Sequence record: PQ864023.1
Length of the DNA: 64,000 bases
Strand: one strand, 5' to 3'
Source: Enterobacter phage vB_Ecl_SABI
Program-made: the position numbers and the translations under genes
The notes under the pieces: model-generated
What the model saw: only the letters and a program-made list of their open reading frames with translations
The model's database searches: none
What the model was told of the DNA's origin: nothing
Shown here: positions 40,091-43,967 of the stretch, in pieces
Numbering within the stretch: position 1 is the stretch's first letter
Layout: each line of letters begins with the position of its first letter

Positions 40091-40456
40091 TTAAACTACA
40101 CGGAATTCCCATACGCCACGGAATGGCATAACTGCTTTAGCTTTCAATACCTTACCGCTGATATTGATAGAATCCACATAGTGATCTTTTGGTAACTGAG
40201 CCGTGTAATACATGCTCTGGTTTGAGACTTTGAACTTACCCATGTTGCCAATTAGCACACGGGTTTTGAGCTTGTCTAAAAGCTCCTGAGTGATCTTTAT
40301 TGCACGAGTACCATCACTGATATACATAGGATTTCTTTTCTCCTTCGGGATGAAATTACCGTTCTCATCCCATACGCTTAATACCTTACGTTGGAATCTT
40401 TTAGAGCCACGCTCTAATGCTTCATCGCCCCAGCGATCACCCCAGTCTTTAGCCAT
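40091..40456 (-). CDS. small protein, LKT-motif family member
   Basis: 'QELLDKLKTRVLIGNM'. Confidence 0.4.
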   Translation of the reverse strand: MAKDWGDRWGDEALERGSKRFQRKVLSVWDENGNFIPKEKRNPMYISDGTRAIKITQELLDKLKTRVLIGNMGKFKVSNQSMYYTAQLPKDHYVDSINISGKVLKAKAVMPFRGVWEFRVV

Positions 40457-40631
40457 TACAGGACACCTGTGATAGCGAACTGAGTGGCTTCATCCTCGGT
40501 AGCGAAGAAGCTGAATGAACAACCATGACGCCCCATCCACGGAAATTGACGACCGGCGTGGTATTCAACGTAGCCTACGACTACTGCCCATTTGGTCGGT
40601 GTTACAGAGATCTTTTCCATACATACCTCAA

Positions 40632-40662
40632 TAAAAAAGCCAACCCGAAGGTTGGCTTAATT
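40632..40662. terminator. strong bidirectional terminator gccaaccCGAAggttggc flanked by an A-run and a T-run
   Basis: Seen in sequence. Confidence 0.6.
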
Positions 40663-40665
40663 GGT

Positions 40666-40950
40666 TTATTCGATGCCCAGATCGACGAATTCGCCTTCTT
40701 TGTGAGCTTCGCCAAAGGTCAGCTCAATACGGCCAACCAGGTCTTGCAGCTTCTCTGGATTTGAACGAATCAGAGCCAGAATCGCGCCTTCAACCGGGTG
40801 GTTTTCACGCAGAGCAATACCAGAGCCGCCCAGACGTTTACGGGAACCGTCACGGGTCAGAATGTTGATGTTCAGATAGCCGCCAACTTTGTTCTTAGCA
40901 GCATTGTCAGCAGGAGCGTTGTTTGCAGCAGGAGTGCGAGTGAAAGCCAT
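40666..40950 (-). CDS. small (94 aa) hypothetical protein flanked by a strong terminator
   Basis: ORF track. Isolated single-gene unit. Confidence 0.45.
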   Translation of the reverse strand: MAFTRTPAANNAPADNAAKNKVGGYLNINILTRDGSRKRLGGSGIALRENHPVEGAILALIRSNPEKLQDLVGRIELTFGEAHKEGEFVDLGIE

Positions 40951-41040
40951 GATATATACCTCTTAAAGATGAGTAGATGATTAATAACAGAATGTGGGCT
41001 TAACATGCCCTTAATTGCACATAACGCGCTATGCGCGTTT

Positions 41041-41385
41041 CTAACAGATGATTAAGCAGCTAACACGGTCACGCCATGCAGCATATTGCAGAGGACTGCC
41101 GTTGACCTCTTCACTGAACGCAGAGAGGTCTTCAAATGCTTCACGCCCCAGAATAGAGGCAGCGACTTCAACCTGAGTCTCTAAAGCCAGGTCGGACATA
41201 ATTAACTGAGACATACCTTTATGGAACAGGAACAATGCCAGATCACGCATTTCTCCATCCATCCACGCACGCTTACACCAGCGCAGATTAGTCTGAGCAT
41301 GATCGATATTCATAGTTGGCATACAACAATCCTTAGAGTTGAACCCTGGCTTCAGCAGCCCTGAAACCAGAGTATTATTAGTCAT
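41041..41385 (-). CDS. hypothetical early protein (probable start at internal Met ~41322 with AAGGA RBS)
   Basis: ORF track plus RBS inspection. Confidence 0.4.
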   Translation of the reverse strand: MTNNTLVSGLLKPGFNSKDCCMPTMNIDHAQTNLRWCKRAWMDGEMRDLALFLFHKGMSQLIMSDLALETQVEVAASILGREAFEDLSAFSEEVNGSPLQYAAWRDRVSCLIIC

Positions 41386-41403
41386 TGAACGTGCTATGCA
41401 CGT

Positions 41404-41667
41404 TTACCAAACTTGGTAATTTAGAACGATACGAAAGGTAGGATGTATACCTAATAGCAGTTTAGTTTTTATTTTATTTAGTTCTCCGGGTGGGATACTA
41501 AATCTAAACTGATGTGTACCTCTTATATAGCCATCAGAGAAATCCTTACGATTCCAACGATATATAGTTATATCTCCGAATACAGTACCGTTATCATTAG
41601 TGATAACAGAATCATCGAACTCGATGGAGTAAGCTGTATCTTTACGCTTACGTTCGATTATAGCCAT
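41404..41667 (-). CDS. small early protein, LKT-motif family
   Basis: 'PGELNKIKTKLLLGIHP'. Confidence 0.4.
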   Translation of the reverse strand: MAIIERKRKDTAYSIEFDDSVITNDNGTVFGDITIYRWNRKDFSDGYIRGTHQFRFSIPPGELNKIKTKLLLGIHPTFRIVLNYQVW

Positions 41668-42014
41668 TAGCTAATACCTTTGATTGTTGCCTCCGTTTTA
41701 ACATAGGGATACTTACCCTGAAGCATTTGCTTGGTTAAACGGACACTGAGCATGATAGTTTTACACTTGATACCAGGTATACCTACACGGAGCATAATCT
41801 CTCCGACGAGTCTACCCGGCCCCAATTCGAACATGCGGATATCAATAATGATATCACCTGTCCATGTGAAATTCGGTGTAAGCATCACACGAGTTTTAAG
41901 ATTTTCCATCACTCCCGGGGTAAGATAACCAATTTTATCAAATGTGTTTCTTTCAGCATCCCAACGAAGTATTTCTGTACCACCATCAGTCAGTGATATA
42001 TCCTGATTATCCAT
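41667..42014 (-). CDS. small early protein, LKT-motif family
   Basis: 'MENLKTRVMLTPNF'. Confidence 0.4.
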   Translation of the reverse strand: MDNQDISLTDGGTEILRWDAERNTFDKIGYLTPGVMENLKTRVMLTPNFTWTGDIIIDIRMFELGPGRLVGEIMLRVGIPGIKCKTIMLSVRLTKQMLQGKYPYVKTEATIKGIS

Positions 42015-42280
42015 TCTGCTAACACTCCTGGTTTAGTTGAGTAATCGTTAGTATCCAGATAAATAGCAACTGCACGTTTACCATTTATTTCGAATACATT
42101 ATTTTCCGTTCTACCTCTTGAGTACCAGGTTGGTACTTTTACGGTGAACGACATATAGAACTCATTAGTTGAAGTTCTGGATTTAAGTAACGCTTTGGTA
42201 GCTAGTTTCTTAAGTTCAGTTTCACTGAGCTTACAAAAGTATCTACGCGGTGTTGCTTGTGAACCATTACCAACTCTCAT
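41990..42280 (-). CDS. small early protein, LKT-motif family (divergent)
   Basis: 'ETELKKLATKALLKS'. Confidence 0.35.
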   Translation of the reverse strand: MRVGNGSQATPRRYFCKLSETELKKLATKALLKSRTSTNEFYMSFTVKVPTWYSRGRTENNVFEINGKRAVAIYLDTNDYSTKPGVLAEWIIRIYH

Positions 42281-42597
42281 ATAGCAGCACCCCCACTATC
42301 CTTTACTGGTTTATATTCAAAGAGCCACATACGTTTCTCTTTGGTATTTGCTTCATAAGCAGCAGTATCAGGATTGAGCAATTGACCACGCCAATCTTGA
42401 GGACACACCAGATATACTGGCTTAGGTGGATAACCACCCTCATACCAATACACAGAGGTAACCAGTTGCACTGGTTCTTTATTACCAATCAGGAATAGAG
42501 TTCTGATCTTATTGAACTCTTCTTCAGTTACTTTAGCTTCAGCTATTAACTTAGTACCTGATGGGTGATAGCGAATTACATCACGGATTATTATCAT
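42277..42597 (-). CDS. small early protein, LKT-motif family
   Basis: 'EEFNKIRTLFLIGNK'. Confidence 0.4.
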   Translation of the reverse strand: MIIIRDVIRYHPSGTKLIAEAKVTEEEFNKIRTLFLIGNKEPVQLVTSVYWYEGGYPPKPVYLVCPQDWRGQLLNPDTAAYEANTKEKRMWLFEYKPVKDSGGAAI

Positions 42598-42680
42598 TAC
42601 GGTTTACCTTGATTACTTTGTTTAATTTATAGAATTCATCCATAAACACTTCAGTATAAGATTTACCCCAAACCTTAGTT

Positions 42681-42965
42681 TTAGAAGGGTATCCTCCGGG
42701 TCAGATTGAAACGCCAGTAGGCTTCCAGATAGGAACCAGCTTTACAGAGGTCAGGATACATAAGCTGAGCTTCGATCCACAGACCATCACCAACCTTGAT
42801 TTGCTTGGTTGATTTCTTCTGCTGGTTTCTGAATGTAGGTAATTTCAGTTCCACACATGGAACCTTTAGTACCATGAGCTTAACCTTCAGACTCTTTAGT
42901 AGCTCTGGTGTTATATGAACATATAACGCTGTAGCATTGTATGCACGTAGTCTACGTTTAGCCAT
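42681..42965 (-). CDS. small early protein, LKT-motif family
   Basis: 'PELLKSLKVKLMVLK'. Confidence 0.4.
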   Translation of the reverse strand: MAKRRLRAYNATALYVHITPELLKSLKVKLMVLKVPCVELKLPTFRNQQKKSTKQIKVGDGLWIEAQLMYPDLCKAGSYLEAYWRFNLTRRIPF

Positions 42966-43137
42966 TTTTACGAGCCTCTTTGTATAGGTCAGCCAGGTTA
43001 GGGAAATCTTTCTTCTGTTTGTCAGAACAGTAGAAATACTGGAAGAATCCGGGATAACTTTTGATAACTACCCAAGGATAACGCGATTGCTTATTCTCAT
43101 TCCTAATGAGTTTATATTCGATATCAACCATAGTTAT

Positions 43138-43440
43138 TTACTCGAAGTAGATAAGAGCATTAAGCTCATCAGTTGTAGGACATACCCAGTGCATTACATC
43201 AGGTGCAATAGGTACATTGAGATGAATACGCATACCAGTTTCTGGGATGGTATACATACGATGAAGATCATTCGGGTATAACGCTATGCGGTCAGTCTCC
43301 ATGATTAACATACGTAATCTTCCCTGACGCTTGTGCATACCCATTAATCTTCTGGTTTTTAACCCTTCTATATCTTGCTCATCGAGCGTAGCAATAAAAG
43401 TGTATTTACCAGCCTGATAGCATAAGTTAACAGTTGTCAT
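43138..43440 (-). CDS. small early protein, LKT-motif family
   Basis: 'DIEGLKTRRLMGMHK'. Confidence 0.4.
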   Translation of the reverse strand: MTTVNLCYQAGKYTFIATLDEQDIEGLKTRRLMGMHKRQGRLRMLIMETDRIALYPNDLHRMYTIPETGMRIHLNVPIAPDVMHWVCPTTDELNALIYFE

Positions 43441-43724
43441 ACCATCACCTTAAGTTGAACAGGTATGATTTCCATATCCTCCTTTATACGAGGAATGGCT
43501 GGAGTGCTAACTTCAATTCCATCATCCCAGGTCATATGGAATTTACCTTCAAGCCAGCGAGCGAGACAATACTTGGCTCGTCTCTCTGTTTCGAACAGTC
43601 GAGGTAAACCTGTGTCTTGAATATCAACACGAGTATTACCTCTGCCCTTGCCTACGCTGTCAGCAGTAGCAAGGATACGTTTAGTGGGTATATGCCTAAT
43701 TACCCAGTAGGTTATTTCTTTCAT
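43437..43724 (-). CDS. hypothetical early protein
   Basis: ORF track. ATGA-type overlap with a neighbour. Confidence 0.4.
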   Translation of the reverse strand: MKEITYWVIRHIPTKRILATADSVGKGRGNTRVDIQDTGLPRLFETERRAKYCLARWLEGKFHMTWDDGIEVSTPAIPRIKEDMEIIPVQLKVMV

Positions 43725-43730
43725 ATAGCC

Positions 43731-43967
43731 TCAAAATAATTGGTCTAATTCTGTATCGAAGACAGCAGGAACAAGAGTAGCTATAACAGTTATCTCTGTG
43801 CTGTCTTTACCAATAAGTTTGGAAGTCTTAAGACGTTTAAGTTCAGATGCAGGTATAGTGACAAATACACTATGTTCTTCACCTAAGTTTATCTTAGCTG
43901 TTACATCAATTTCGTTAGCCATAGGCTTAGTCCAGTTGAGGAACTCATTACAATGCACGGAGTGCAT
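43731..43967 (-). CDS. small early protein, LKT-motif family (true start probably the internal Met ~43922)
   Basis: 'ASELKRLKTSKLIGKD'. The annotated N-terminus is encoded by the GGA-loop hairpin itself. Confidence 0.4.
   Translation of the reverse strand: MHSVHCNEFLNWTKPMANEIDVTAKINLGEEHSVFVTIPASELKRLKTSKLIGKDSTEITVIATLVPAVFDTELDQLF

Follow-up and report, generated by a model that had tools for sequence, protein, structure and literature searches.

A superfamily of small early proteins around the RNA polymerase II genes of Enterobacter phage vB_Ecl_SABI

In the early region of Enterobacter phage vB_Ecl_SABI (sequence record PQ864023.1), upstream of and around both genes of its RNA polymerase II (RNAPII), lies a group of small genes on the minus strand, the products of which share the motif h-x-h-[T/S]-x-x-[E/D]-h-x-x-h-[K/R]-T-x-x-L-L-G. 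The DNA analyzed is a stretch of 64,000 nucleotides, referred to as the window in its full length, and all coordinates refer to it. In a first-pass annotation of this stretch the motif was reported for nine open reading frames (ORFs) together with a weaker copy in a tenth; all ten ORFs and their peptide strings were confirmed on the minus strand at the coordinates given below. Nine of them are real, ancient and lineage-restricted paralogs of one small single-domain superfamily (78-121 amino acids), whose domain is previously undescribed and carries no assigned function in databases.

Results

Members of the family

In the following, each gene is named by its lower coordinate.

40091..40456, minus strand: member, 121 amino acids; directly upstream of RNAP1; motif at residues 56-70, TQELLDKLKTRVLIG (nucleotides 40247-40291)
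41404..41667, minus strand: member, 87 amino acids; motif near the C-terminus at residues 59-73, PPGELNKIKTKLLLG; last residues ...YQVW
41667..42014, minus strand: member, 115 amino acids; motif at residues 32-46, TPGVMENLKTRVMLT
41990..42280, minus strand: member, 96 amino acids; motif at residues 19-33, SETELKKLATKALLK
42277..42597, minus strand: member, 106 amino acids; motif at residues 24-38, TEEEFNKIRTLFLIG; the better of two AlphaFold models
42681..42965, minus strand: member, 94 amino acids; motif at residues 19-33, TPELLKSLKVKLMVL
43138..43440, minus strand: member, 100 amino acids; motif at residues 20-34, DEQDIEGLKTRRLMG
43731..43967, minus strand: member, 78 amino acids; motif at residues 39-53, PASELKRLKTSKLIG; rare, in a variable gene slot
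37084..37332, minus strand: member, 82 amino acids; downstream of RNAP2; motif at residues 22-36, TPEIINQFKTKKLLG
37335..37589, minus strand: possible divergent tenth member, 84 amino acids from a conserved Met; contains GRMTVPKSLVSTMKASLLSG; adjoins 37084
35283..35576, minus strand: non-member, the reported weaker copy; C-terminal ...LNKAKMAKLLGIK

Eight of the members had been described as standing in tandem. A stretch of 3.9 kb does contain eight members, but these are interspersed with five unrelated genes (43437-43724, 42958-43131, 41041-41385, 40666-40950 and 40456-40620), and only five members (42965 down to 41404) are directly contiguous. The observation that the motif occupies different positions within the proteins was correct in so far as the positions do differ, mainly because the N-terminal extensions differ, but in five of the nine members the motif starts at residues 19-24. 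A basic N-terminal extension (KDWGDRWGDE...) is present in 40091.

Conservation of the motif

The motif is the conserved part within the orthologues of every family across 20 related phage loci. With a hidden Markov model (HMM) of the nine 27-residue segments the members were scored at 32-39 bits, compared with 8.6 bits for the best of the 1,030 other six-frame ORFs of the window (72,118 residues), corroborating the occurrence of the motif in nine ORFs. When each copy was left out in turn, seven of the nine ranked first over all non-members, among them 41404 (24.5 bits), 40091 (20.0 bits), 37084 (13.5 bits), 43731 (12.6 bits) and 41667; the low ranks of 41990 (rank 4) and 43138 (rank 12) were rescued by orthologues bearing better copies of the motif. 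Furthermore, a 22-column superfamily HMM, applied to 450,314 six-frame residues of the window and 21 loci, yielded 131 matches of at least 8 bits, all of them on the coding strand of the early genes and none on the opposite strand.

Within the motif, the Thr of the K/R-T pair is conserved to at least 90% over 37 sequences from all nine families, and the hydrophobic positions are conserved as well as the polar ones. The same codon underlies only 33% of the identical motif residues. Consequently, the conservation resides in the protein, and a DNA or RNA element which merely translates to similar peptides was rejected. The orthologues of 41404 retain [KA]-T-[KR]-x-L-L-G, those of 41667 [KR]-T-x-R-L-L and those of 37084 F-[KR]-T-x-[KQ]-L-L-G. 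At the K/R-T pair the window copy of 41990 reads A-T, with K-T or R-T in its orthologues, and that of 42681 reads K-V, with K-T in its close homologues (LKTKL in P0005, P0006, P0008 and P0014).

Profile comparison of the families

The families were compared with one another by profile-profile alignment (hhalign), using 12 neighbouring gene families as negative controls. A probability of at least 50% was reached by 14 of the 36 family-family pairs (maximum 95%, median score 26.1), compared with none of the 108 family-control and none of the 66 control-control pairs (medians near 10), and nearly all family-family alignments set motif on motif. The profiles of 40091, 41990, 42277 and 42681 align end to end over 53-83 columns, and in an alignment of 42 sequences these four families share an invariant Trp in the last, C-terminal strand (Trp90 in 41990), so that the flanking sequences, which had been noted as differing, are not wholly different. 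For 41404, 41667, 43138, 43731 and 37084 the alignments comprise 15-41 columns centred on the motif.

As to the individual links, 41990 and 42681 were aligned with probabilities of 84-95% over 69-83 columns, and 40091 was linked to 42277 (88-90%), to 41990 (69-86%) and to 42681 (up to 80%). Links were likewise obtained for 37084 to 40091 (84%) and 42681 (65%), for 41667 to 40091 and 43138 (83% each), for 41404 to 43138 (83%) and 41990 (69%), and for 43138 to 41667, 41404 and 41990 (82-83%). The links of 43731 (49% to 41404) are weak because its profile consists of one sequence.

The weaker copy at 35283 had to be discarded from the family. Since its orthologues read LEQAMLFLEAE at this place, without the motif, and its profile matches no family (hhalign at most 0.7% to every one of them), it is a chance match. 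The gene at 37335-37589, for which the listed ORF begins further upstream with a TTG at 37694, may be a divergent tenth family member with a degenerate copy of the motif: the top four of the 108 family-control scores all belong to it, aligned motif on motif with a probability of at most 19%, and its orthologue in the related locus L016 reads LKTCLLAG.

Predicted structure

AlphaFold2 (AF2) models were calculated for 42277 and 43138 from shallow alignments of 32 and 19 sequences, respectively. The model of 42277, with sequences from four families, has a predicted local distance difference test (pLDDT) score of 77.6 and a predicted template modelling (pTM) score of 0.67 and comprises the strands (E) and helices (H) E2-10, E16-23, H25-36, E43-52, E69-73, H76-81 and E85-95. 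Here, the motif forms the end of strand 2 and helix A, with Gly37 just past the helix. For 43138 only the sequences of its own family were used, which keeps the test independent; this model (E4-10, E13-19, H21-32, E37-48, E63-65, E70-74, E92-99) is poor, with a pLDDT of 57.6 overall and 60-79 over residues 1-50. Compared by element order, and with one of the two at low confidence, both models exhibit the same strand-strand-helix-strand-strand-strand order and register. The common strand-helix unit, for which structure prediction had been proposed as a check, is thereby recovered in both models in the same order, but in one of them at the low pLDDT mentioned.

According to the models, the motif is the signature of a predicted structural unit, composed of a strand end, a [T/S]-x-x-[E/D] start and a helix of about 12 residues which carries [K/R]-T-x-x-L-L and is usually followed by a Gly. 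In the fuller members this unit is predicted to lie between an N-terminal beta-hairpin and three more strands, the last of them bearing the conserved Trp. The best matches to 42277 in the viral structure library BFVD were a 97-amino-acid protein of phage Possum and a 96-amino-acid protein of phage Nepra (17-19% identity, template modelling (TM) scores of 0.44-0.55), both of which belong to other paralog families and are not orthologues of 42277. Taken together, the profile comparison with its controls, the multi-family alignment, the two AF2 models and the BFVD matches bear out the earlier proposal of a shared small domain which was duplicated and diverged.

Relatives and distribution

The type of the phage and the region of its genome are marked by the RNAPII subunit genes:

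37805-40072, minus strand: RNAPII subunit genes RNAP1 and RNAP2
39092-40072, minus strand: RNAP1, just upstream of RNAP2
37805-39079, minus strand: RNAP2, 424 amino acids, large subunit of the N4-type RNAPII (tblastn)

When the region was compared by megablast with 50,697 phage records no match was obtained, no record being close at the DNA level, and the phage was placed via tblastn of RNAP2 instead. This protein is 76% identical to that of Kosakonia phage Kc283 and 75% identical to those of the Pectobacterium phages phiA41, Nepra and CB4; over Kc283, phiA41, Nepra, CB1/3/4, the E. coli phage EK8 and Possum, all of them Schitoviridae of the genus Cbunavirus, identities range from 72 to 76%. 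The RNAPII genes of the window are split, and the gene order of its early region is syntenic with the Cbunavirus relatives. Judged by these genes, the window belongs to an N4-like podophage with Cbunavirus as the closest genus.

For comparison of the early regions, nine named relatives and N4, six close metagenomic relatives and five IMG/VR contigs were used. All family genes of the window except 43731 have syntenic orthologues in the named relatives; the orthologue of 43731 was found only in the IMG/VR locus L017. The related loci hold 4-10 copies each, with 6-10 in the named Cbunavirus phages, five in Erwinia phage MIF8, one or two in Klebsiella Efbeekayvirus and none in N4. Some subfamilies of the relatives are missing from the window, for example IWLTKAMLDQMRTLKLLG and YFEVTDELVDNIRTQHLLG of CB4; these extra subfamilies include the CB4_008, CB4_010 and CB4_014 types and a type of 95 amino acids from L012.

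Six of the nine members fall in six separate PHROGs with E-values of 5e-9 to 1e-38, namely phrog_35035 (40091), phrog_27457 (41667), phrog_35909 (41990), phrog_30060 (43138, E 1e-38), phrog_24879 (37084) and phrog_24685, which PHROG keeps unlinked and labels, without exception, as of unknown function; 41404, 42681 and 43731 gave no significant PHROG match. A word-indexed search of 5.8 billion proteins (with two alignments and one protein) returned 49 close unnamed relatives without Pfam domains, among them two nr entries with 99% identity under the name 'MAG: hypothetical protein [Bacteriophage sp.]', which is the name borne by the nr protein that is 99% identical to 40091. When 1.84 billion representative proteins were searched exhaustively with a profile, 18 relatives were obtained, all of 86-122 amino acids and single-domain, with no domain fusions among them. 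By tblastn of two members against the 50,697 phage genomes only Cbunavirus records and MIF8 were matched, all hypothetical, and a search of IMG/VR with the 43138 family gave five contigs. No description of the family was found in a literature search; in the paper on CB1, CB3 and CB4 the only remark on the ORF content of the early region is that it varies (PMC6027278). A relation to OB or cold-shock proteins was considered as well and found no support in Pfam, PDB-fold and profile comparisons.

Selection and turnover

Gene-wide pairwise ratios of nonsynonymous to synonymous substitution rates (dN/dS) were determined according to Nei-Gojobori against five close relatives. The family genes have a median dN/dS of 0.20 (range 0.03-0.32, n = 23) versus 0.12 (range 0.03-0.46, n = 56) for the other early genes, a difference which is not significant (Mann-Whitney p = 0.20). 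The family genes are thus under ordinary purifying selection, and the diversifying selection suggested by the first-pass annotation is not borne out. The duplications are old, with syntenic orthologues of each paralog present throughout the genus; variation concerns the gene content and the age of the alleles.

The synonymous divergence (dS) is indeed higher in the family (median 0.65 vs 0.44, p = 0.03), and the amino-acid identity is lower (78% vs 91%, p = 0.008). For 43138, 42681 and 42277 dS reaches 0.8-2.0 against the close relatives L011 and L012 (for 42681 against L011 only), whereas for the same phage pairs the flanking genes (41041-41385, 40666-40950 and the RNAP genes) remain at 0.06-0.14. 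High dS in these family genes next to low dS in the flanking genes fits a replacement of alleles by recombination better than fast protein evolution. Over 42277-44200 the comparison with L011 and L012 yields a divergence mosaic, suggesting that part of the early region was replaced by recombination. With respect to gene content, 41990 is missing in three of the five close relatives (L011, L013 and L016) and the slot of 43731 is occupied by unrelated genes in relatives. Immediately upstream of RNAP1 a family member is found in every case, but three different subfamilies occur in this slot among the close relatives. Accessory-gene behaviour, that is presence/absence and allelic variation between close phages, was thus observed.

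Transcription signals and genomic setting

The following features were located in the surroundings of the family genes:

44887-44899, minus strand: early-promoter-like hairpin of the N4 type, GTGC-ATA-GCAC (pattern search), upstream of the unit holding the cluster
45541-45553, 41390-41402 and 41025-41037, minus strand: similar GC-ATA-GC hairpins (pattern search)
43976-43995, minus strand: terminator-like hairpin with a TTCG loop (consensus scan), just upstream of the first cluster gene (43731-43967)
40666..40950, minus strand: non-member, homologue of the Drc/gp2-type single-stranded DNA (ssDNA)-binding RNAPII cofactor; its phmmer family includes a Kc283 gene so annotated

The four promoter-like hairpins have a GC-ATA-GC core and stems of 4-7 bp, and all are intergenic and on the coding strand. 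The same core is found in the early promoters annotated in phage CB4 (PMC6027278), of which there are three as against four candidates in the window. From this likeness we infer that the hairpins may act as promoters.

In total, five strong terminator-like hairpins, each followed by a T-run, were found on the minus strand (45973-45996, 43976-43995, 40637-40658, 37608-37627 and 36991-37017), four with a TTCG tetraloop and the one at 36991-37017 with a 5-nucleotide loop; they split the early and middle region into short units. About 450 bp (45540-46000), flanked by a terminator-like hairpin on one side and by the first promoter-like hairpin on the other, are non-coding and contain TA- and pyrimidine-rich imperfect short repeats (45659-45714) as well as a near-consensus TTGACA-N17-TATACT on the minus strand. 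This may be a regulatory or an end-proximal region of the genome.

Homologues of Drc in CB1-like phages have been described (PMC7145618). The family of 40666-40950 was matched to every paralog family with an hhalign probability of at most 2.4%. In PHROG its group, phrog_6271, is labelled 'toxin', and the orthologue in phage Horatius is called 'toxin TX1'; this label probably reflects toxicity upon overexpression rather than function.

The minus-strand early region meets plus-strand genes at 47257-47346, and the genes beyond include one for a 536-amino-acid protein, read from the sequence by eye as a putative large terminase subunit. As the early region begins at the left genome end in the named relatives, the window seems to stem from a linear, terminally repeated genome which was assembled in circularly permuted form. 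In phiA41 and Horatius a gene of about 660 bp with an AP2/DNA-binding domain, probably a homing endonuclease, is located between RNAP1 and RNAP2 (L003 8328-8990 and L006 8743-9405), and in MIF8 the RNAP2 gene itself is interrupted (L007 10092-11106); the arrangement in the window is uninterrupted (39079-39092). The close metagenomic relative L011 carries a gene of the Sequestin family (PF21825), a known anti-Thoeris sponge, at 1507-1713, near the genome end and far from the paralog cluster.

Discussion

Regarding the function of this ancient superfamily, we consider it somewhat probable that its members are early binders with a shared scaffold which serve in host takeover or anti-defence. Transcription of the genes would take place early, with the injected virion RNA polymerase acting on the hairpin promoters, and each paralog would combine the common scaffold with its own diverged surface and thereby address a different target. 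Such targets would be host proteins or nucleic acids, whose binding would contribute to takeover or anti-defence. The cluster itself turns over, in that its slots gain, lose or swap subfamily members and several members diverge strongly between close phages, in line with an exchange of alleles by recombination. The functional interpretation is favoured because of the position of the genes, the small size of the proteins, their copy number, their turnover and their absence from N4. A farther-reaching version, which we put forward only tentatively and regard as doubtful, holds that the proteins represent a new fold, expanded to 4-10 copies per related locus within a single small clade of N4-like phages, and act as a modular 'binder scaffold' in which the strand-helix core and the Trp strand are fixed and the surfaces vary. 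Copies would be swapped by recombination and thereby redirected to other host factors or defence systems early in infection, and the cluster would be a second anti-defence or takeover island of the Schitoviridae, without relation to the known one and with one target per paralog.

Several points weigh against a host-directed role of the family. The gene-wide dN/dS values lack the signature of an arms race, and no characterised homologue was found in Pfam, NCBIfam, the named PHROGs, PDB sequences or PDB folds. The anti-defence hotspot described for N4-like phages is situated at another place in the genome, with the primase-polymerase on one side and the virion RNA polymerase on the other (bioRxiv 10.64898/2026.06.04.730250). 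An isoelectric point (pI) of at least 8.8 (8.8-10.1) is found for seven of the nine members, a value that fits nucleic-acid binding at least as well as protein targeting. In addition, the terminator-like hairpin at 43976-43995 lies between the promoter-like hairpin at 44899 and the cluster, making the assignment of the cluster to an early transcript from 44899 less certain. As to the common scaffold, only two members were modelled, one of them at low confidence, and the models were compared by the order of their elements; 41404 and 43731 have little sequence past the motif and may have a different or permuted architecture.

The main rival explanation, which we judge to be rather unlikely, holds that the members are small nucleic-acid-binding helpers of the phage's own early-to-middle programme and not directed at the host. 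With the same low probability they might bind ssDNA, hairpin promoters or RNA, or assist one of the two polymerases, RNAPII or that of the virion, as cofactors or chaperones. The predominantly basic character of the family is in line with this explanation, with a net charge of +8 to +12 for 40091, 41990 and 42681, but 43138 (pI 6.4) and 43731 (pI 5.2) are acidic. RNAP1 is always directly preceded by a family member, albeit of differing subfamily, and the cluster flanks the Drc/gp2-type cofactor gene; small ssDNA-binding proteins of novel structure are known to take part in the transcription of N4-related phages (PMC7145618). However, the paralogs have no profile relation to this Drc-like gene, nine or ten paralogs with presence/absence variation would be unusual for core transcription factors, and N4, which follows the same transcription scheme, has no copy at all.

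It is improbable, furthermore, that the motif is a portable docking helix which unrelated small proteins acquired or converged on for binding to one common host or phage partner. Such a helix would be consistent with the five of nine families that align on little beyond the motif (about 15-41 columns), with the polar K/R-T pair as the best conserved feature and with the differing lengths on either side of the motif in 41404 and 43731. Against it stand the end-to-end alignment of four families, with their invariant Trp, and the conservation of the hydrophobic positions, as expected for a core helix. Duplication is favoured by the arrangement in tandem and by the similar sizes; moreover, the motif is built into the fold of both AF2 models as a strand-helix element whose neighbouring elements are the same. 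A chance low-complexity K/L-rich pattern in AT-rich small ORFs, finally, is of negligible probability and excluded for the nine copies. The G+C content of the region (0.40-0.44) is indeed lower than in the rest of the window, and one of the ten reported copies, 35283, truly is a chance match. Nevertheless, no other six-frame ORF of the window comes near the scores of the members, the superfamily HMM finds no match of at least 8 bits on the non-coding strand, and the motif is kept in orthologues while the control families stay at background, so that a K/L pattern without conserved flanks, named in the first-pass annotation as the outcome that would speak against a family, is not what was found.

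ORFans make up the majority of the early genes in N4-like phages, and the genes described here are listed in databases as six or more unrelated 'hypothetical' families. With one superfamily, the core of which is defined by the strand-helix unit, its near-invariant Thr and the C-terminal Trp of the fuller members, about ten unknowns per genome become one problem, for which the Thr, the Lys/Arg and the Trp offer mutational handles. The compact and variable cluster is open to deletion and screening in the culturable phages EK8 (E. coli), the Pectobacterium CB phages and Kosakonia phage Kc283. Should a role of the members in takeover or anti-defence be confirmed, they would provide a new scaffold for such functions. 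Because the clade is rare (18 matches in 1.84 billion proteins and five IMG/VR contigs), the wider impact is limited unless a function emerges.

Comparison with known systems

The six PHROG families of unknown function contain the same proteins, which are annotated as 'hypothetical' in Cbunavirus, and are joined here into one superfamily. In AbrB/MazE/SpoVT and ribbon-helix-helix units a short strand ending in I/V-P or T is followed by a helix ending at Gly, to which VFVTIPASELKRLKTSKLIG of this family may be compared; none of the ten proteins matched such a Pfam family at E <=1. The elements of a beta-grasp (ubiquitin-like) fold follow one another as strand-strand-helix-strand-strand-(short helix)-strand, and the 42277 model has the same order. 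A beta-grasp relation was supported neither by Pfam nor by PDB-fold and profile searches.

Drc and N4 gp2 (PMC7145618) are also small, basic and structurally novel early proteins encoded beside the RNAPII genes, but Drc is single-copy, in contrast to the 4-10 copies of the family described here. Beyond the low hhalign values given above, no Drc-like match was present among the matches listed in either PDB fold search, and a relation to Drc found no support. The anti-defence hotspot of N4-like phages (Acb4-Sequestin, Bes1, Bes2 and Tad proteins) is likewise a variable cluster of small accessory genes, which are non-essential with redundancy between neighbouring genes (bioRxiv 10.64898/2026.06.04.730250). 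Unlike the cluster described here, it lies outside the early region, and its genes are related neither to one another nor to the present superfamily. Pfam, which holds the Sequestin model PF21825, gave no such match and no RyR-like match for the window proteins, the Acb and Tad models not having been specifically checked.

In the LSm fold a five-stranded bent sheet follows upon an N-terminal helix, whereas in the 42277 model of the present family the helix lies between strands 2 and 3. The early proteins of T4-type phages (GoF and its relatives), the function of which is poorly known, share one LSm-like fold and are likewise small, early and very dissimilar in sequence (PMC12152347); they belong to another phage group, and the likeness is one by description. 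The superfamily is thus a new protein family of a familiar kind, that of expanded small early phage genes, in a rare clade.

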